Source of the DNA: Escherichia coli
GTDB lineage: Bacteria > Pseudomonadota > Gammaproteobacteria > Enterobacterales > Enterobacteriaceae
Assembly (NCBI RefSeq): GCF_046105845.1
Contig: NZ_CP151004.1
Strand: one strand, 5' to 3'
DNA: 64,000 nucleotides
Shown: piece by piece, positions 16,373-33,127 of the stretch
Numbering within the stretch: position 1 is the stretch's first letter
Layout: the number at the start of each line of letters is the position of its first letter
Translations under genes and position numbers: made by a program
Notes under the pieces: generated by a model
What the model was told of the DNA's origin: nothing
What the model saw: the letters and a program-made list of their open reading frames with translations, nothing else
Database searches by the model: none

Positions 16373-16401
16373 TGGCAATAACATAAATTCTGCAAAAATA
16401 A

Positions 16402-16432
16402 TTTTCCCCTATCGTTATCTATGGGATAGGGG
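16402..16432 (-). terminator. bidirectional-type terminator hairpin between ytfJ and ytfI
   Basis: CCCCTATC…GATAGGGG stem flanked by T/A runs. Confidence 0.55.
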
Positions 16433-16461
16433 AATTAAGCCTCTGAGTTCTTACGCCGAAC

Positions 16462-17373
16462 TCATACTGGTAACGCTAGTTGCTTTTTTTTAAACGCCTC
16501 AATGGTCGATTTATATTTCTCGCAAATCTTTTCTTCGGTAATATCACTATCTGCGGCCAGATTCGCACTTACTATCGCATCCACTTGTTCGGCTAATTCG
16601 ACTTGTTGGCAACCTGCATTAACCAGAAAATTATAAATAAGAGAGTAATCTTCATCCTCCAAAACAACAGAGGAACCATTACGAAAACGTTCATCCCCTC
16701 CATAGATTTTAAGCGCAAAGCCCAAAGATTCTATGACTATGGCAAAATTATCATCAATTATTTTTTCGTAAATATACCATCCATCGCATTCTTTAATTCC
16801 ACCTCCTGGAATTTGGAGGTCAAATTTACCCCGTTTTAATTTACTTACTATATCATCCAATACAGCATAACCTAAAGACACGTCACCAAACGCCTGGCGA
16901 ATATAACCTTTAATCCTTTCCGGTATGTCAGACTGTTTTTTCTGCAAAATATCCCAGGCATACAATCTTCTGTTTTGTTCTAACGGAAACTCGCGGTTTT
17001 TGAAATCCATGAATGAGTTATACTCATTTATTGTTATGGGAATTTCTTCGTATTCAAATCCACTGCCTCGCAATGTCATTATATATTCGGCACCGTTATC
17101 TTTAAGGCTGAAACTGATAAGAAACTTATCCATGGTGTTAACAGTTTCATTTTTTGATGAAAGTACCTGATAACTATTTTTATCAATCTGAGTTGCGCAA
17201 CGAAAGAACTCCCGCAAAGTTAACAGGCTATCATAATTTGAAATCCAATCTTTTTTATTAAATGCATGCTGGATATTGTTAAAAAAATTGTTTGAATGTG
17301 TTTTTGTATGCGATGATTTTATAAATAACTCCACCGCACCAATAAAATTATTGTGTCTGATCCTGGGTAACAT
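16462..17373 (-). CDS. ytfI: uncharacterised protein, low-GC gene
   Basis: 303-aa ORF in markedly AT-rich DNA between cysQ and ytfJ; no recognisable domain. Confidence 0.7.
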   Translation of the reverse strand: MLPRIRHNNFIGAVELFIKSSHTKTHSNNFFNNIQHAFNKKDWISNYDSLLTLREFFRCATQIDKNSYQVLSSKNETVNTMDKFLISFSLKDNGAEYIMTLRGSGFEYEEIPITINEYNSFMDFKNREFPLEQNRRLYAWDILQKKQSDIPERIKGYIRQAFGDVSLGYAVLDDIVSKLKRGKFDLQIPGGGIKECDGWYIYEKIIDDNFAIVIESLGFALKIYGGDERFRNGSSVVLEDEDYSLIYNFLVNAGCQQVELAEQVDAIVSANLAADSDITEEKICEKYKSTIEAFKKKQLALPV

Positions 17374-17584
17374 ATGGCTACCTTATTTTATTTGGTTATT
17401 TTATGTCGCCATTAAATATCTCATTATAGAAGTAAACTATCAAAAAACGCTCATTATTAAAATGTAACTTATTAGCAATTGAATTTTTGCACTTTAAATA
17501 CAATCTCTTTTTATTTATAACTTTTTAGGTTGGGAGAAATCAGGATGGCAGAATCAGGAAATACACTGTTTCTGCCATCTGAAT

Positions 17585-23095: not shown

Positions 23096-23758
23096 ATGGC
23101 TTATCGCGACCAACCTTTAGGTGAACTGGCGCTCTCTATTCCTCGCGCTTCGGCTCTGTTTCGTAAATATGATATGGATTACTGCTGCGGCGGTAAGCAA
23201 ACGCTGGCGCGTGCGGCGGCACGTAAAGAACTGGATGTTGAGGTCATTGAAGCTGAGCTGGCAAAGCTTGCTGAACAACCGATTGAGAAAGACTGGCGTA
23301 GCGCCCCGCTGGCAGAAATCATCGACCATATCATCGTGCGCTACCACGATCGTCACCGCGAGCAACTGCCGGAGCTGATCCTGCAAGCGACTAAAGTCGA
23401 ACGCGTTCACGCCGACAAACCGAGCGTTCCAAAAGGGCTGACAAAATACCTGACTATGCTGCATGAAGAGCTTTCCAGCCACATGATGAAAGAAGAGCAG
23501 ATCCTCTTCCCGATGATCAAACAAGGCATGGGCAGCCAGGCAATGGGGCCAATCAGCGTAATGGAAAGCGAGCACGATGAAGCGGGTGAACTGCTGGAAG
23601 TAATCAAACACACTACCAATAACGTCACACCGCCGCCGGAAGCCTGCACCACCTGGAAAGCGATGTATAACGGCATTAATGAACTGATTGATGACCTGAT
23701 GGAGCACATCAGTCTGGAAAACAATGTGCTGTTTCCGCGCGCACTGGCGGGTGAGTGA
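23096..23758 (+). CDS. ytfE: iron-sulfur cluster repair di-iron protein (RIC)
   Basis: 220-aa ORF ([35 protein letters not shown]…) with hemerythrin-like repeats. Confidence 0.93.
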
Positions 23759-23760
23759 TC

Positions 23761-23790
23761 TAAAAGCTGGATGGCATTGCGCCATCCAGC
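23761..23790 (-). terminator. terminator hairpin between convergent ytfE and cycA
   Basis: GCTGGATGGCattgcGCCATCCAGC 10-bp stem; T-run on the cycA side. Confidence 0.65.
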
Positions 23791-23802
23791 ATGATAATGC
23801 GG

Positions 23803-25215
23803 TTATTTCCGCAGTTCAGCAGCCCGCTTCTTACCAATAAACAACCAGCCCAGCCCCAGAGCGATAAACCACAGCGGGGTAACCAGCAGCGCCTGGCGGG
23901 TATCATCTTCCAGTGTCAGCAGCACGACCACGAACACAAAGAATGCCATACATACCCAGCACATCAGCTTGCCGAGCGGCATCTTGTAGATTGATTTCTC
24001 ATGCAGGTGCGGACGCTGTTTGCGATACACCAGGTACGAGCAAAGGATAATCGTCCAGACGAACATAAACAGAATCGCGGAAACGGTTGTAATCATCGTG
24101 AACGCGCCAATCACGCTGGGATTCACATACAACATCACCACGCCGCCGAGCAGGCAGATGCAGGAGAAGGTCAGCCCTTTCGCGGGTACTGCGCGCTTAG
24201 AGAGTTTAGCGAACGCTTTCGGTGCCACACCTTCCTGCGCCAGACCAAACAGCATACGACTGGTAGAGAAGACGCCGCTGTTAGCGGAAGACGCCGCAGA
24301 GGTCAGCACCACAAAGTTGATCACGCTGGCAGCCGCAGGCAAACCTACCAACACAAACAGCTCAACGAACGGGCTTTTCTCCGGGACTACCGAACTCCAC
24401 GGCGTCACGGACATAATCACAATCAGCGCGAAGACGTAGAACATAATGATACGGATCGGAATGGAGTTAATCGCGCGTGGCAGTGATTTCTCTGGATCTT
24501 TGGTTTCCGCAGCTGTTGTACCTACCAGCTCAATCCCTACGAAAGCGAAAACCGCTATCTGGAATCCGGCAAAGAAGCCACTTAAACCTTTCGGGAACCA
24601 GCCGCCATCATTCCACAAATGCGCGAATGACGCTTCCACACCGGTCGGTGACTGAAAGTGCATCGCCACCATGACCAGGCCGACGACAATCAGCGACACA
24701 ATGGCGACGATTTTGATCATCGCAAACCAGAACTCCATCTCACCGAACATTTTCACGGTGGCGAGGTTGAGCGTCAGCAGCAGCACTATCACCGCCAGCG
24801 AGGCGACCCAGTCGGAGAGCTCGGGGAACCAGAACTGAGCATAAGCCGTGATCGCCACCACGTCTGCCATACCGGTTACAACCCAGCAGAACCAGTAAGT
24901 CCAGCCGGTGAAATATCCTGCCCACGGCCCGAGTAAATCGGAAGCGAAGTCACTAAAAGATTTGTATTCCAGATTCGAAAGCAGCAATTCCCCCATTGCC
25001 CGCATCACGAAAAAGAGCATAAAACCGATGATCATATAAACGAAAATGATCGACGGCCCGGCAAGGCTAATCGTTTTGCCGGACCCCATAAACAACCCCG
25101 TACCAATGGCACCGCCAATGGCAATAAGCTGAATATGTCGGTTTGTGAGATTGCGCCGTAGCGACTGTTCAGCCGGAGCCTGATCATCGGCAACGACTTT
25201 TACCTGATCTACCAT
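23803..25215 (-). CDS. cycA: D-serine/D-alanine/glycine APC-family transporter
   Basis: 470-aa 12-TM ORF (MVDQVKVVADDQAPAEQSLRRNLTNRHIQLIAIGG…). Confidence 0.93.
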   Translation of the reverse strand: MVDQVKVVADDQAPAEQSLRRNLTNRHIQLIAIGGAIGTGLFMGSGKTISLAGPSIIFVYMIIGFMLFFVMRAMGELLLSNLEYKSFSDFASDLLGPWAGYFTGWTYWFCWVVTGMADVVAITAYAQFWFPELSDWVASLAVIVLLLTLNLATVKMFGEMEFWFAMIKIVAIVSLIVVGLVMVAMHFQSPTGVEASFAHLWNDGGWFPKGLSGFFAGFQIAVFAFVGIELVGTTAAETKDPEKSLPRAINSIPIRIIMFYVFALIVIMSVTPWSSVVPEKSPFVELFVLVGLPAAASVINFVVLTSAASSANSGVFSTSRMLFGLAQEGVAPKAFAKLSKRAVPAKGLTFSCICLLGGVVMLYVNPSVIGAFTMITTVSAILFMFVWTIILCSYLVYRKQRPHLHEKSIYKMPLGKLMCWVCMAFFVFVVVLLTLEDDTRQALLVTPLWFIALGLGWLFIGKKRAAELRK

Positions 25216-25523
25216 GTTTTTTTCTTCCTGTACCTGTCTGTGTTGTTCAGGCTCTACGGCCTTTAGTCAGTCTATGATACGACGAATCTGTATCGGGACT
25301 CATCGATATTAGGTAACAATACGCGGGATGAATACTAAGATTTAGATCTAATGTTAATTTTATGTTTAAAGTGAGTGTCATATCACGGTGATAACGCGAA
25401 ACAGCTCACAAAAATACACGCTTACGCGGTCTTTGCAACACAAAATAGCGCCGTTTGGCAAACTGAAGGGGTTATTGCTGAATGCCTGCTCCCCTCTGGC
25501 TCGAGGGGAACAGAATGCGCTGC

Positions 25524-26144
25524 TTAGAGGATTTCCAGCAGTTCGACTTCAAACACCAGGGTGCTGAACGGAGGGATGGACGCGCCTGCGCCACGCTCGC
25601 CATATGCCAGTTCCTGCGGGATAGTCAGTTCCCATTTAGAACCTACCGGCATCAGAGTCAGTGCTTCAATCCAGCCAGGGATCACGCCGTTAACCGGGAA
25701 TTCAGCTGGCTCGCCGCGAGCAACGGAGCTGTCAAACACGGTGCCGTCGATCAGTTTTCCGGTGTAATGAACACGAACGCGGTCGGTACGTGCCGGAATT
25801 GCGCCTTCGCCCTGGTTGATCACGCGGAATTGCAGGCCAGATTCGGTGCTATTTACACCTTCTTTTTTGGCGTTTTCTTCCAGGTATTTCACACCTTCAG
25901 CAGCCATCGCCTGGAAACGCTGACGACGAACGGCATCGGCGCGTTCGTGGATTTCACGCAGCGCGCGGTGCACCACATCAACCGGAACAGCCGGATGTTT
26001 GCCTTCCAGCGCATCAGCAATGCCTGCAACCAGTGCTTCTGGCAGCAGCCCTTCCAGGCCAGATTCACTTAGTTGTTGCCCTACCTGCAAACCAATGCCG
26101 TAGCTTGCTTGCGCTTCGATGGTGTCAAAAGTTGGGGTGGTCAT
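25524..26144 (-). CDS. fklB: FKBP-type peptidyl-prolyl cis-trans isomerase (FKBP22)
   Basis: Start trimmed to [20 protein letters not shown]… (206 aa); FKBP domain at C-terminus. Confidence 0.9.
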
Positions 26145-26361
26145 CGTATTTCCTTTCTTAGGGTATAAAGTAGCGGGCAGCATATCAGCCACACTTCTTT
26201 GGGTAAAACTTTGTCGCGGGAATGATGACAAATCCCGGGGAAAAAGAAACAATAGCAATATCCCGTATGAATATAATAAAGGCGGGTTTACCACGGACAT
26301 CATAGCGTTAGCTTATTCATAGGCTATGATTGAGGAACAAGACGCGGAGCAGGAGGAAACC

Positions 26362-27000
26362 ATGCCCGGGCGCTTTGAACTAAAACCAACCCTGGAGAAA
26401 GTCTGGCACGCGCCGGACAATTTTCTCTTCATGGACCCGCTGCCGCCGATGCATCGTCGGGGGATCATTATTGCCGCCATTGTATTGGTGGTCGGATTTC
26501 TGCTTCCATCTGATGATACGCCCAACGCGCCGGTGGTGACGCGTGAAGCGCAGTTAGATATTCAGTCGCAATCACAACCACCGACAGAAGAACAGCTGCG
26601 GGCGCAATTAGTCACGCCACAAAATGATCCTGATCAGGTGGCTCCGGTCGCTCCAGAACCAATACAGGAAGGCCAGCCAGAAGAGCAGCCGCACCCCCCC
26701 CAAACGCAACCATTCCAGCCAGATAGCGGAATTGATAATCAATGGCGCTCTTACCGTGTCGAACCCGGTAAAACGATGGCACAGCTGTTCCGCGACCACG
26801 GGCTGCCCGCTACCGATGTCTATGCAATGGCGCAGGTAGAAGGCGCGGGTAAGCCGCTGAGTAATTTGCAAAACGGGCAGATGGTGAAAATCCGCCAGAA
26901 CGCCAGCGGCGTGGTGACGGGCTTAACCATTGATACGGGGAATAATCAACAGGTCCTGTTTACCCGTCAGCCGGATGGCAGTTTTATTCGCGCGCGGTAG
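26362..27000 (+). CDS. ytfB: OapA/LysM-like cell-division-associated protein
   Basis: Start trimmed to [21 protein letters not shown]… (212 aa); single TM then periplasmic domain. Confidence 0.85.
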
Positions 27001-27134
27001 ATGAAGGGTCAACCAGAAGCCAGCTAAGGAGCGTCTCTTTGATGACCTTACGTCTGGCTTCCAGTGCCTGGGGTGAAACCATACTGATATGTTGACATCC
27101 TCCACGCCCTGAAGGACGTGGATCCCTGCTACGT

Positions 27135-28343
27135 TCAGGCTGTCGCCTGAATCATTTCGGTGGGTTCCTGCTTCAACGAGCGGCCTGACTGCACCATCTC
27201 TCCACAGGCAAGAACGGCGTGCCCCGCCGCTAAAATGTTACGAGCGCCGTTTACATCGGCGTTCGCTGTATATCCACATGCCTGGCATCTGAATTGACTT
27301 TGTGACAGGCGATTTTCTTTCGCTGTATGACCACAGCACGCGCAACGCTGGCTTGTGTACGCTGGCGGAACAGCAAGCACCTGACCGCCACGCCAGAGCT
27401 GCTTGTACTCAAGCTGGCGGCGCATTTCATACCAGCCCTGATCCTGTATCGAACGGTTTAAACCTGATTTTGCCCGGACATTGCGCCCCGGCTGGCTGAC
27501 CGTACCCGCTGCTGACTTTGACATGTTGCTGACCTTCAAATCCTCAATGACTATCATTGCGTGGTTTTTGCTGACGGTCGTTGTGACTTTGTGAAGGTAG
27601 TCCCTGCGGATATTTGCGATACAGGAATGCAGTCGCTGTATTTTGCGTTTCTGCTTCTGCCAGTTGTTGCTGAATTTGACCTTGCGGCTTAACTGTCGCT
27701 GAAGTCTCGCCAGCGTCTTCTGGTTTTTCTGAAAACTGTTTACAGGCCCAAAGACTGTGCCATCTGACAGCGTGGCGAGTTTAGCCACGCCAGCATCCAG
27801 CCCGACCATTGATGCTGAAGGGTGAACCGGAGTTGATACTTCATTTTCAGTCTGAATACTGATGTACCACTTACCGCAGGACTGGCTGACAGTGACATTT
27901 TTCACAACACCCGTGACCTGACGGCTATTCCGGTAGCGCATACAGCCAAGTTTCGGCAGAAAAATACGGCTGTTTTCCTGATCGAGCTTAACGCCCTGCG
28001 GGTAGCGGAATGCATCATTCTGTCCCCGCTTTTTGAATCGGGGAAAAGCAGCCCGCTTCTGGAAGAAGTTTTTGTAAGCCCGCTCAAGGTCTTTCAGTGA
28101 CTGTTGCAATGGCTGTGACGGGGCATCTTTAAGCCATTGCGTTTCAGTGGCATTTTTCCACTCAACCAGCCAGGAAGCCATTTTCCCGTAAGGGATGTAT
28201 TTATTACCGGCCTCATGATTCTCATTCTGAAGCGCCAGAGCACGATTGAAAACGAAACGACATGCGCCTGCGAAGCGCCTCATTTCACACTCCTGTTGAC
28301 CACCTGGTCTTAACTGGAATTTAAATGCCTGTAATCGTTTCAC
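27135..28343 (-). CDS. tnpB: TnpB (OrfB_IS605) RuvC-like RNA-guided endonuclease
   Basis: 402-aa ORF with RuvC-I (GLDAGV), RuvC-II (IVIEDL), zinc finger (CACCGH…CQACG) and RuvC-III ([10 protein letters not shown]) motifs. Confidence 0.9.
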
Positions 28344-28350
28344 AGGTCAA

Positions 28351-28782
28351 ATGATACTTTGGTCTATGAAAAAAGAAACCGATATCCGGCGTGGAAAGCA
28401 TTGTGTTTTCCTGATGCATGTTCACCTGGTCTTTGTCACCAAATACCGACGCCAGATTTTTGACCATGACGCGAAAGAAAAACTACGCACTTACTTTTCA
28501 AAGGTATGTGCTGATTTTGAAGCTGAACTGGTTGAAATGGATGGCGAACCAGATCACGTCCATTTGTTAATTAACTATCCTCCCAAACTGGCGATATCCA
28601 GTCTGGTAAACAGCCTCAAAGGCGTATCGAGTAGGTGACTGCGACGAGATCGACCAGATATTGCAGTCAGGTATTACTACAAAGGCGTTTTGTGGAGTCC
28701 TGGCTATTTTGCCAGTAGCTGCGGAGGTGCGCCAATATCCGCCATCCGTCAATACATTGAACAACAGCAAACACCTGGTTAG
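28351..28782 (+). pseudogene. tnpA: IS200-like Y1 HUH transposase TnpA interrupted by in-frame TGA
   Basis: HUH motif (PDHVHLLINYPPK) before a TGA at 28636..28638; the same frame continues (LRRDRPDIAVRYYYKGVLWSPGYFASSCGGAPISAIRQYIEQQQTPG) to TAG at 28780..28782. Confidence 0.75.
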
Positions 28783-28797
28783 GTGGAAAACCGCGCC

Positions 28798-29055
28798 TTA
28801 TATCCCCGCCCTGAAGGACGGGGTTTTACGGCGCACTGGATAAACCAGGCCAAGCGTATGCTGGTTGATCAAATAATATCCCCCAAGCGCAGCAATATTA
28901 ATATTCACCTGCAATGGGTCGCTATCTGCCTTAAAAATATTGTGTTTCTTCCCTTCATCCAATAATTCCATTAAATGCAAGTGCGCATGATTAATTTCTA
29001 AGAGACGCTGTGATTTTGCATAATGCACACCTTTACTTTGGTTTTCACTATGCAC
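28798..29055 (-). pseudogene. ytfA: ytfA-like remnant ORF; 3' end reads into the IS left-end hairpin
   Basis: 85-aa GTG-start ORF; last 7-8 codons (…TPSFRAGI) are encoded by the IS terminal hairpin; upstream in-frame TAA near 29182. Confidence 0.4.
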
Positions 29056-29405
29056 AATTTTTAAAAACCTGGGATTAGCAATATAATAACCCCAGGTAAA
29101 ATCGATGATTTTTTCAATGGATTTTTGTGGCTGGTTAACCTGCTGATTAACGAACGCACCGATACCGACAGCGTAGAATAATTACATACCGCACAACAAG
29201 AATGTATGGTGTAAGGCGTTGTCAGTCATCTCCCTCCCTGGATGCATCGTTATATCCGTGATGAGCGATTTTTGATATTAATATCTTTCACCATCCGCTA
29301 TCTTCACTACTTCAGAAAACAAACTTATTTTTATTAATATCGATTATTTATTCTGTGCACATTCAGCTGCGATATTTATAAAAAAATTAAACAGGCAAAA
29401 ATACA

Positions 29406-30200
29406 ATGACATTACCAACCACTATTTATTCATTTCCTGCATATTCACCCCGTTTTTCGTCCACCGACAAACCAGTAAAATTAAAATTTCATCAATACGC
29501 ACGCGCTACATTACTTTCAAATCGTGGAAGAGATCATAATTGCGATGGCAGACATACTGTTGAGATCCACAAACTAGATCTCTCAGACTGGCAAGCATTC
29601 AATAAGTTAGCGACGAGGTGTAATGCTTACGATGGAATAACAATGAATGGTGATAATTCTTTTGGATGGAACCATGAAGCTACATTAGATAATATTCACG
29701 CCCAGAAATACAATAAAGCTTACGCGGGTGCGAGGTTAACCGCAGAACTGAAATATTTATTGCAAGATGTCGAATCCTTCGAACCCAACAGTAAATACAC
29801 AATACACGAGGTTGTTTTGGGACCTGGTTATACTACTCCAGACTATACCGGCCAATCGATAGGATACGTTGTAACCCTTCCTGCCCAAATGCCTAATTGC
29901 TGGTCATCTGAACTACCAACAATCGATCTTTATATCGACCAACTTCGCACTGTTACAGGCGTTTCTAATTCCCTCGGATTCATCATTGCTGCATTGCTAA
30001 ACGCGTATTCTGATTTACCCCATGATTTGAAAATTGGTCTGCATTCCTTATCAAGTTCAGCAGCAATCTACTCGGGTTTGGGTTTCGAGCGAGTGCCGCA
30101 GGAGCGAGACATCAGTTGCGCTCGTATGTATCTAACGCCAGCAAACCATCCTGACTTATGGACACAAGAGAATGGTGAATGGATCTACTTGCGAAACTAA
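29406..30200 (+). CDS. yjfZ: uncharacterised protein YjfZ
   Basis: 264-aa ORF in AT-rich DNA; no recognisable domain. Confidence 0.75.
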   Translation: MTLPTTIYSFPAYSPRFSSTDKPVKLKFHQYARATLLSNRGRDHNCDGRHTVEIHKLDLSDWQAFNKLATRCNAYDGITMNGDNSFGWNHEATLDNIHAQKYNKAYAGARLTAELKYLLQDVESFEPNSKYTIHEVVLGPGYTTPDYTGQSIGYVVTLPAQMPNCWSSELPTIDLYIDQLRTVTGVSNSLGFIIAALLNAYSDLPHDLKIGLHSLSSSAAIYSGLGFERVPQERDISCARMYLTPANHPDLWTQENGEWIYLRN

Positions 30201-30222
30201 TACCTGACGAAAAATAGAAAGC

Positions 30223-30250
30223 AAAACGCCGACCACTGGTCGGCGTTTTT
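30223..30250. terminator. bidirectional rho-independent terminator between yjfZ and rplI
   Basis: AAAACGCCGACCactGGTCGGCGTTTTT: 10-bp GC-rich stem flanked by A-run and T-run. Confidence 0.85.
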
Positions 30251-30270
30251 ACGTCTCGTTGAATAACGAA

Positions 30271-30732
<462 letters not shown>

Positions 30733-30761
30733 TCAAAGTCGTATTAATGGACCGTGACCGA

Positions 30762-31308
<547 letters not shown>

Positions 31309-31314
31309 CAGAAA

Positions 31315-31728
<414 letters not shown>

Positions 31729-32036
31729 TTATTCAGCCTCCTGTCTGGGTCAGCCGAATCCCGGGGAGGCAAGGAACGTGTTAAAGGTCGGCTGAAAAAT
31801 GACGCGTTATAGTACTGACATACCCCGCTAAACTCAAGGCCAGCCGACAAATAAATCTCATCTTTCACCAAATCGTACTAACACGCTGATTTGAAGTTCA
31901 TCACACTTCATCATGGTGTTTTTTTGAACAACTGCATCAGAAATGGTCACCATCAACTTCTTTATCATTGATTAAAATTAAATCAGAAGATCATCACAGA
32001 GGAGAGCACACAAAGTCAGCCGTCGAGGAGGTATCT

Positions 32037-32312
32037 ATGTTCAGTCGTGTTTTAGCCCTTCTGGCTGTGCTTTTGCTAAGTGCAAATACATGGGCAGCCA
32101 TTGAAATTAATAACCACCAGGCCAGAAATATGGACGATGTGCAAAGCTTAGGCGTGATTTATATCAACCATAACTTCGCCACTGAAAGTGAAGCACGTCA
32201 GGCATTAAATGAAGAGACAGATGCGCAGGGCGCAACGTACTACCACGTGATTCTAATGCGGGAACCGGGGAGTAACGGCAATATGCACGCCAGCGCGGAT
32301 ATTTATCGCTAG
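32037..32312 (+). CDS. yjfY: DUF1471 (YdgH/BhsA/McbA-like) periplasmic protein
   Basis: Start trimmed to MFSRVLALLAVLLLSANTWA… (91 aa). Confidence 0.82.
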   Translation: MFSRVLALLAVLLLSANTWAAIEINNHQARNMDDVQSLGVIYINHNFATESEARQALNEETDAQGATYYHVILMREPGSNGNMHASADIYR

Positions 32313-32352
32313 CACCAGGTATAACCAACGAAACATTGCCATAGTTTGCTTT

Positions 32353-32377
32353 GCCCCCTTCGCAGGGGGCTTTTTTT
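32353..32377 (+). terminator. rho-independent terminator downstream of yjfY
   Basis: GCCCCCTtcgcAGGGGGC followed by TTTTTTT. Confidence 0.85.
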
Positions 32378-32440
32378 GAAAAACGGCTGCGGAATTAGAC
32401 CAGTTATCTCCCGAAGAAGGAAATTTCCGCAGCGCGTGTT

Positions 32441-33127
32441 TTACTTCTGCCCGTAATAAGCGTTAGGACCGTGCTTACGCATGAAGTGTTTATTCATGAG
32501 GTAGCTGTCGATATGATTCAGTTGTGGGTTAATGCCGCGGGCAATCCACGCCATTTTCGCCACTTCTTCCATCACTACCGCGTTATGCACCGCATCGTGG
32601 GCATCTTTCCCCCAGGCGAACGGCCCGTGCTGGTACACCACAATCCCCGGTGTATGCAGAGGCTCGGCGTTGCCCAGCGTTTCGATAATCACTTTGCCGG
32701 TGTTCAGTTCGTACTCGCCCTGCACCTCTTCTTCGCTTAATCCGCGCGTGCACGGGATGTCGCCAAAGAAGTAATCGGCGTGCGTAGTGCCTAACGCCGG
32801 GATCGCCAGCCCCGCTTGCGCCCATGCGGTAGCATGAGTTGAGTGGGTATGGACAATACCACCAAGCGACGGATAACGACGGTAGAGTTCGAGATGCGTG
32901 GCGGTGTCGGAAGACGGGCGATATTCCCCTTCCACCACCTTGCCGCTCATATCGACCACTACCATATCGTCTGCTTTCATGGTTTCGTAGGCGACACCGC
33001 TGGGCTTGATCACCACCAGCCTGCGTTCGCGGTCAATGGCACTGACGTTGCCCCAGGTAAAGGTCACCAGCCCGTAGCGCGGCAGATCCATGTTGGCTTC
33101 AAACACCTGCTGTTTTAGCTTTTGCAT
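32441..33127 (-). CDS. ulaF: L-ribulose-5-phosphate 4-epimerase
   Basis: 228-aa class II aldolase-fold ORF; last gene of ula operon. Confidence 0.92.

Follow-up and report, generated by a model that had tools for sequence, protein, structure and literature searches.

The window, by which we mean the whole stretch of 64,000 nucleotides of Escherichia coli DNA analyzed here, carries cycA(-), fklB(-), ytfB(+), a piece of ytfA(-), IS609, a second piece of ytfA(-), yjfZ(+), the ribosomal genes rplI-rpsR-priB-rpsF(-), yjfY, ulaF and onward. The closest complete-genome matches to its two 25-kb flanks share 97-99% identity (best 98.7% and 99.0%), which marks the strain as an ordinary E. coli with no close match among the complete genomes of the collection. 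The segment under study, 29056-30200, lies between ytfB and rplI and had been described as an AT-rich islet of foreign appearance, composed of yjfZ and some 350 bp of upstream DNA. Its G+C content is indeed low, at 0.398 (39.8%) against a window mean of ~0.516-0.517; only 1.6% of 1145-bp windows (mean 0.517, sd 0.04) are as low, and among stretches of this length it ranks second lowest. The predicted gene of 264 aa is present as an intact ORF (Table 1), with a third-position G+C of 0.36 compared to 0.43-0.67 in neighboring genes, while the 350 bp upstream of it are AT-rich on average and uneven along their length. The single stretch of lower G+C, 16381-17525 (0.339, the lowest of the window), holds a 303-aa ORF (16462-17373, minus strand) that we take from the K-12 map to be possibly ytfI. 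A second variable spot is found ~5 kb from the yjfZ segment at the cycA-ytfE junction (23758-23803), which is empty in the window (44 bp) and elsewhere (L021 16909-19023, L022, L026) contains one or two extra genes, encoding either a 355-aa protein that has no Pfam match or two DKNYY-domain proteins.

Table 1. Features of the ytfB-rplI interval in the window.
Feature	Position	Strand	Description	G+C
ytfA (TetR/AcrR-family) pseudogene, 3' piece	26984-27091	(-)	C-terminal ~35 codons and stop; overlaps the end of ytfB	
IS609 copy (IS200/IS605 family)	27092-28838		splits the ytfA pseudogene	
tnpB	27135-28343	(-)	intact, 402 aa	
tnpA	28351-28638	(+)	95 of 143 aa	
ytfA pseudogene, middle piece	28839-29130	(-)	aa 83-180 of the intact regulator	
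ytfA part of the segment	29056-29130			0.293
3-ketoacyl reductase gene relic	29135-29240	(+)	first operon gene; 106 bp, ~aa 31-58, two in-frame stops	0.462
Native yjfZ 5' region	29241-29405	(+)	presumed promoter	0.291
yjfZ	29406-30200	(+)	intact ATG ORF, 264 aa, 795 bp	
Bidirectional intrinsic terminator	30223-30249		common to rplI (-) and yjfZ (+)	

Both pieces of ytfA can be traced to the intact gene of E. coli B. The 3' piece aligns at 96.4% identity by blastn to L005 633-824, in agreement with tblastn using the 215-aa regulator, and RefSeq annotates the same piece in L001 as a partial TetR/AcrR gene. The middle piece aligns at 94.3% by blastn to L005 824-1119 and at 92% identity by tblastn over aa 83-180, and an 85-aa ORF overlapping it (28801-29055) is matched by the Pfam domain TetR_C_29. 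A TetR/AcrR regulator would have a TetR_N helix-turn-helix and a C-terminal domain in an intact frame; here the N-terminal 82 aa, including the DNA-binding domain, have been deleted and only the TetR_C_29 part is left. Judging by these alignments, ytfA of the window is a pseudogene that has lost residues 1-82 and whose remainder is split by IS609. The ytfA pseudogene of K-12 (b4205) has the same N-terminal truncation, but K-12 has no IS at the site where IS609 splits the copy in the window. The presence of a ytfA remnant had been recognized correctly and its end had been misplaced at 29055, as homology to intact ytfA reaches 29130, and the first 75 bp of the segment (29056-29130) are still ytfA pseudogene. 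Intact ytfA is itself AT-rich (G+C 0.394), and the low G+C of these 75 bp is therefore no mark of import.

Members of the IS200/IS605 family encode a Y1 transposase, TnpA, together with TnpB, and insert without target duplication. The copy in the window carries both genes, as seen from Pfam matches to OrfB_IS605, Cas12f1-like_TNB, HTH_OrfB_IS605 and Y1_Tnp, and it has inserted precisely when K-12 is taken as reference (L003 position 3001). It is a standard IS609 with tnpA and tnpB; its tnpA frame (28351-28782) bears a nonsense mutation, TTA to TGA at 28636-28638 (Leu96 to stop), that cuts the Y1 transposase. Because of this nonsense codon, the element is probably non-autonomous and unable to move alone. 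Rfam gives two matches below threshold, HgcC (24.6 bits) and RAGATH-18 (29.5 bits), at 27079-27208 (minus strand), at the tnpB 3' end and the end of the IS, where a TnpB guide (omega/re) RNA would be expected. The original prediction of gene decay and an IS beside yjfZ holds in that the ytfA pseudogene and IS609 are both there; the IS, however, is not part of the yjfZ cassette, from which it is separated by 375 bp of pseudogene and relic.

The origin of the DNA between ytfA and yjfZ is revealed when K-12 (L003), E. coli B (L005) and L006, a genome in which everything is present, are aligned with the window. In the intact locus ytfA, encoding the 215-aa TetR-family protein, is divergent from a six-gene operon for a ketoacyl reductase, a sugar-phosphate isomerase/epimerase, an enoyl-CoA hydratase, a CoA transferase, a 690-aa FAD oxidoreductase and a transporter. 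The operon (L005 717-8996; L008 27-8950; L006 5373-13652) has two versions, told apart solely by the transporter, which is either MFS or a three-gene TRAP system. Intact ytfA and the six-gene operon are found in ~3170 of 5426 genomes and have been lost in K-12 and the window. What is left of the reductase gene in the window aligns by blastn at 80% to L005 1665-1769 and at 79% to L006 6321-6425 (tblastn E = 3e-8), and it is flanked by two deletion junctions (alignment A4). The upstream stretch of 350 bp is composed of three unrelated pieces, namely ytfA, the reductase relic and the native 5' region of yjfZ, and by these alignments the first ~185 bp of 29056-30200 are relics of resident genes left behind by an operon deletion of ~7.9 kb. 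A published survey reports that none of the E. fergusonii and E. albertii strains it examined lacks ytfA (PMC6790063), which supports an intact ancestral regulator and a K-12 type derived by deletion. Identity to intact alleles is only ~80% for the reductase relic, compared to 94% for the adjoining ytfA relic and 98% for yjfZ, and exactly where relic and cassette meet, the window departs from K-12 for ~25 nt (alignment A4). This divergence may stem from gene conversion at a later time, or from a deletion haplotype that is old or introgressed.

A census of the ytfB-rplI interval in 5426 complete E. coli genomes distinguished five haplotypes, and the main states together cover 5416 genomes. The arrangement of the window, yjfZ with the K-12-type deletion junction, is found in 2225 genomes; IS609 occupies the same site as in the window in 1742 of them, and ~480 K-12-type genomes are free of it. 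Intact ytfA, the MFS-type operon and yjfZ occur together in 289 genomes, the TRAP-type operon directly abuts rplI in 1478, the MFS-type operon precedes genes for a HipA-family toxin and an HTH protein in 1041, and the MFS gene directly abuts rplI, as in E. coli B, in 359. All told, yjfZ is present as a single copy with 95-99.4% identity in 2538 of the 5426 genomes. The same set of haplotypes is seen in an independent sample of draft assemblies. The flanks are collinear in nearly every genome (30250-55000 in 5412 and 1-25000 in 5349 of 5426). The expectation of high plasticity is borne out by this comparison: far from being invariant within E. coli, the interval takes several forms, and the arrangement in the window has four others beside it. 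The interval may likewise be the most plastic part of the window, the flanks compared reaching as far as 55000. Comparison of these haplotypes shows the segment to be a composite within a hypervariable ytfB-rplI interval of E. coli. What the locus displays is the ordinary plasticity of a pan-genome next to an orphan gene that is poorly understood, and no new kind of system.

The borders of the yjfZ cassette coincide with transcription terminators. A strong bidirectional terminator had been predicted at the end of the ribosomal operon, and the hairpin found there is a perfect palindrome of 13+13 nt with T-runs following the stem on both strands; the 71 nt from 30195 to 30265 fold with -22.1 kcal/mol, giving z = -4.4 against shuffles. 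The variable slot ends at ~30215, which is the foot of the rplI terminator hairpin with its A/T tract, and all haplotypes are identical from 'AAAGCAAAACGCCGACC' onward, the sequence being the A-tract and stem of this terminator. At the other border, yjfZ- and hipA-bearing haplotypes share the stop codon of the MFS gene and part of its terminator hairpin (L006 13663-13696) and then diverge. The cassette in the window extends from ~29213/29241 to 30214 and is a single-gene, AT-rich unit of ~1.0 kb (~1.04 kb in L006). In operon-bearing genomes it sits exactly between the convergent terminators of the operon and of rplI, a slot that is empty in some strains and filled by the unrelated hipA/HTH cassette in others. 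The latter is seen in an ST131 genome (L009 4330-6560), in which hipA is frameshifted, and at L029 10852-12614. No terminal direct or inverted repeats surround the cassette in the window or in L006, and no tRNA was found in 25000-32500. The features of a genomic island or integrative element (integrase, tRNA/att target, direct repeats) are absent, and the sole mobility genes near the cassette are those of IS609, which is separate from it.

YjfZ matches a single Pfam family, DUF2686 (PF10887), of which it is a clear member (509.2 bits against a cutoff of 25, residues 5-264) and which NCBI names 'YjfZ/YjiC family protein'. Searches of YjfZ against NCBIfam, PDB sequences, PADLOC and PHROGs gave no match, nor did tblastn against phage genomes, in keeping with the earlier statement that the protein has no recognizable characterized family at the sequence level. 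HMMER, run exhaustively over 1.84 billion representative proteins, returned only fragments of E. coli YjfZ and YjiC, a word-indexed homolog search returned E. coli clusters only and missed YjiC, and a pattern scan of 100,044 species genomes, one each, returned only the yjiC of E. albertii and a 1.3-kb contig; this last scan was non-exhaustive, as the E. coli representative genome itself was not reported. Several apparent homologs were rejected on inspection: plasmid tblastn matches were mislabeled pieces of chromosome and left no true plasmid homolog; P0012 and P0027 from the HMMER scan were spurious repeat proteins; P0004 (169 aa, 80% identity) was an artefact of a frameshift-ridden E. coli assembly (L007, GCA_025847655.1); and the 'Collinsella sp.' MAG contig L017 (JAIJJM010000835.1; 1283 bp, 95% identity to E. 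coli YjfZ) was probably mis-binned. The YjfZ/YjiC family is restricted to Escherichia and yjfZ was found only in E. coli; an ortholog was found neither in E. albertii nor in any other species genome of the non-exhaustive scan. Restriction of YjfZ to Escherichia has been published previously (PMC11057252). All five 'YjfZ' marker oligonucleotides of that study (three for qPCR, namely forward, reverse and probe, and a forward and a reverse one for Sanger sequencing) lie within yjiC (L014 4862-5633), where they yield the published amplicon sizes of 114 and 772 bp, and with up to 2-3 mismatches allowed none matches yjfZ in the window (29406-30200) or at any other locus that bears the gene. By these matches, the published assay is one that targets yjiC, present in 90% of genomes, rather than yjfZ. 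Since yjfZ itself is found in only 47% of complete genomes, it is unfit as a universal E. coli marker.

In no collection searched was a foreign donor of yjfZ found, the sole relative being the Escherichia paralog yjiC, and this bears directly on the reading with which the locus was first presented, in which horizontal transfer brought all of 29056-30200 into the space between ytfA and rplI as one AT-rich islet. Low overall and third-position G+C, the presence of yjfZ in only 47% of genomes, the adjoining IS and the binding of H-NS to the corresponding K-12 spacer are what such an islet would display. Against it, 29056-29130 is ytfA and 29135-29240 a relic of the resident operon, intact ytfA is itself AT-rich, no homolog was found in phages, true plasmids, the non-exhaustive scan of 100,044 species genomes or the 1.84 billion proteins, and IS609 stands 375 bp from the cassette and is missing in the ~480 K-12-type genomes noted above. 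We consider the single-islet reading quite unlikely; of the foreign-looking DNA, the atypical composition of yjfZ stands, and a single foreign islet does not, given its first ~185 bp of resident relics and the lack of a donor.

The paralog offers another account of the gene, namely that yjfZ is an old within-genus duplicate of yjiC that has been patchily retained and is AT-rich like the rest of its family. YjiC (b4325) is the only relative of YjfZ anywhere; the two are of the same length class and 41% identical over residues 40-262, and differ in their N-terminal ~40 residues, which are unrelated. Both genes are solitary, each in an AT-rich islet with its own AT-rich upstream region, that of yjiC being at the iraD-uxuR locus with G+C of 0.26-0.44. 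The two differ in distribution, with yjiC present in 4895 of 5426 genomes (90%) compared to 47% for yjfZ, and yjiC having a syntenic ortholog in E. albertii that is 62% identical to the E. coli protein. As YjfZ and YjiC are only ~40% identical, their split would therefore predate the separation of those species, and the lack of a yjfZ ortholog in E. albertii and the other species genomes scanned would then need multiple losses or accelerated divergence. Duplication within the genus is a credible origin for yjfZ, though one to which we assign somewhat below an even chance.

Our analysis suggests that YjfZ is under weak but real purifying selection as a folded protein. Pairwise dN/dS among seven intact alleles ranges from 0.19 to 0.65 and is below 1 in all 21 pairs, and the eighth allele examined is frameshifted (L010). 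A gene on its way to being lost could also show such values, near 0.4, and a frameshifted allele. If yjfZ were a functionless, decaying ORF persisting by chance in a neutral slot, a constraint far below that of typical core genes, a broken allele, absence from 53% of genomes at no obvious cost and a probable location in an H-NS-bound region would all be expected. Yet 2524 of the 2538 carriers have the 795-bp frame at its full length, 7 of 8 alleles examined are intact, and the family alignment, which includes E. albertii, retains 61 invariant columns between paralogs of ~40% identity, arguing for a folded and selected protein; a decaying ORF is unlikely in light of these data, if not negligible. 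No functional study of yjfZ or DUF2686 was found in the literature, where matches for 'yjiC' refer almost entirely to an unrelated Bacillus glycosyltransferase. One yjiC transposon mutant of an atypical EPEC strain is reported to be biofilm-deficient (PMC4100040).

Expression of yjfZ presumably depends on its own 5' region, which is 98% identical to L006 from 13728 onward, downstream of the MFS gene, with homology starting at 29213 (alignments A1 and A4). A promoter consensus scan upstream of yjfZ gave sites no more frequent than in shuffled sequence, and therefore no sequence-based promoter is proposed, and an Rfam scan of 26900-30400 gave no match in the yjfZ region. Genomic SELEX has shown RpoD holoenzyme and H-NS to bind the yjfZ-ytfA spacer of K-12 in vitro (PMC3946193), and a weak FlhDC peak lies near it (PMC9962212). 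The window is 97% identical to K-12 across the yjfZ region and has the AT-rich composition of H-NS-silenced DNA, H-NS binding being known for the K-12 spacer in vitro only. From this binding and identity, silencing by H-NS would be the likely default state of the AT-rich yjfZ promoter in the window strain.

Structure prediction and remote-homology search, which had been put forward as a check on YjfZ, matched no well-characterized family by sequence and pointed tentatively to the GNAT fold. The C-terminal half of YjfZ reads like a GNAT core, 'IDLYIDQ..TVTGVSNSLGFIIAALLNA....IGL....AAIYSGLGFERV'. An AlphaFold2 model built from a 14-sequence family alignment (pLDDT 46, pTM 0.47; pLDDT 57-77 in the C-terminal 75 aa) has, with the low confidence of such a model, the element order b1-a1-a2-b2-b3-(b4)-a3-b5-a4-b6-b7, which is that of GNAT proteins; the single-sequence model (pLDDT 35) is too poor alone to interpret. 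Foldseek with the YjfZ model lists GNAT proteins first, at a non-significant best E-value of 0.048. None of the 14 family members matches a GNAT family of Pfam or NCBIfam (PF00583, PF13508, PF13673 and others) at E <= 10, a PDB profile search with the family returned no GNAT chain, and hhalign of the family against a profile of the GNAT protein ElaA gave a probability of 0.1, a result that counts for little in either direction, as both profiles are shallow (Neff ~1.9 and 1.6). Motif A of GNATs (Q/R-x-x-G-x-G/A, at the b4-a3 junction) binds the pyrophosphate of CoA. It is absent from YjfZ, whose equivalent segment, D-Q-L-R-T-V-T-G-V-S-N-S-L-G-F, is glycine-rich and contains the family-invariant residues T182, V183, G185, V186, N188, G191 and F192. 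On the model, we put the odds that the fold of YjfZ is GNAT-like at about even or slightly better; YjfZ would then possibly be an acetyltransferase-like protein, and acyltransferase activity of YjfZ and YjiC is putative. The Ser/Thr/Pro-rich N-terminus of YjfZ also suggested, from its composition, a T3SS effector.

Bringing these observations together, we favor an account in which a deletion scar adjoins a yjfZ cassette held in a variable slot, with silencing and a GNAT-type fold as its inferred parts, and we regard this account as probable taken as a whole. In the K-12-type lineage to which the window belongs, deletions took the N-terminus of ytfA, the promoter region it shared with the operon and almost all of the operon itself, leaving the ytfA relic (to 29130) and the 106-bp reductase relic (29135-29240), and IS609 entered the ytfA relic later. 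The remaining ~29213-30214 is the single-gene AT-rich cassette. The empty-slot haplotypes may reflect either loss of the cassette or a state before its gain. The slot would tolerate insertions, as a 'safe harbour', because it lies between convergent terminators, and selection for retaining the two of them would fix its borders. Alleles may spread by homologous recombination through the conserved flanks, in keeping with the lack of integrase, tRNA and terminal repeats. yjfZ would be transcribed from its own AT-rich promoter, normally silenced by H-NS, and its product would be a highly diverged domain of the GNAT type (acyl-CoA N-acyltransferase-like), preceded by a disordered N-terminus of ~40 aa, as the model suggests. 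Such a protein most likely acylates or binds a small molecule or protein, and may serve as an accessory protein under weak purifying selection. A more ambitious proposal, that YjfZ/YjiC is a genus-restricted divergent GNAT family with a new role (for example, an H-NS-silenced modifying enzyme affecting surface or biofilm behavior) and that hairpins, through an undescribed mechanism, direct recurrent insertion of unrelated cassettes (yjfZ, hipA/HTH) at the same nucleotide of the terminator slot, is in our judgment very unlikely to hold in full.

Much of this locus was already annotated or published, including yjfZ, IS609, ytfA as a pseudogene and the limitation of YjfZ to Escherichia (PMC11057252). 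New here are the breakdown of the upstream region into remnants of a deletion, the census of five haplotypes, the inter-terminator position shared with hipA/HTH and the GNAT hypothesis for DUF2686. The practical value of these findings is modest. They correct the anatomy of the K-12 locus, in which most of the 'yjfZ upstream region' is the scar of a deletion, made up of ytfA and reductase relics, and they provide DUF2686, with its two members in E. coli K-12, with a testable hypothesis at the level of the fold. If the GNAT-like fold is true, acyl-CoA binding becomes the obvious first question for two long-standing y-genes.

Comparison with known systems places these proposals in perspective. 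YjfZ has no sequence or profile similarity to the GNATs BH2621 (2qml), PA3270 (1yre), AAC(6')-Ib (1v0c) or PA0115/ElaA (1xeb, 5z6n), and differs from the GNAT superfamily in having ~100 extra residues (the disordered N-terminus and a long a1-a2 region) and no canonical motif A. The GNAT toxins of type II toxin-antitoxin systems (TacT/AtaT/KacT) are ~160-180 aa in length with an adjacent antitoxin, whereas YjfZ is 264 aa, ~90 aa longer, and has no conserved neighboring ORF. Alternation of yjfZ with a hipA/HTH pair in the same slot could suggest that it is toxin-like or defense cargo, such as a GNAT toxin; however, no adjoining partner ORF exceeds 31 aa and that one is not conserved in K-12, PADLOC and PHROG give no match, and GNAT toxins are not the top fold matches, making this highly improbable. 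Another comparison is with the AT-rich accessory islets of enterobacteria subject to xenogeneic silencing by H-NS. Unlike these, the yjfZ segment has no identifiable donor and no mobility genes and consists of a single gene, and the islet of the original prediction includes relics of resident genes. What the segment does share with H-NS-silenced islets is a promoter G+C of 0.29, a patchy distribution among strains and, in K-12, binding of H-NS in vitro.
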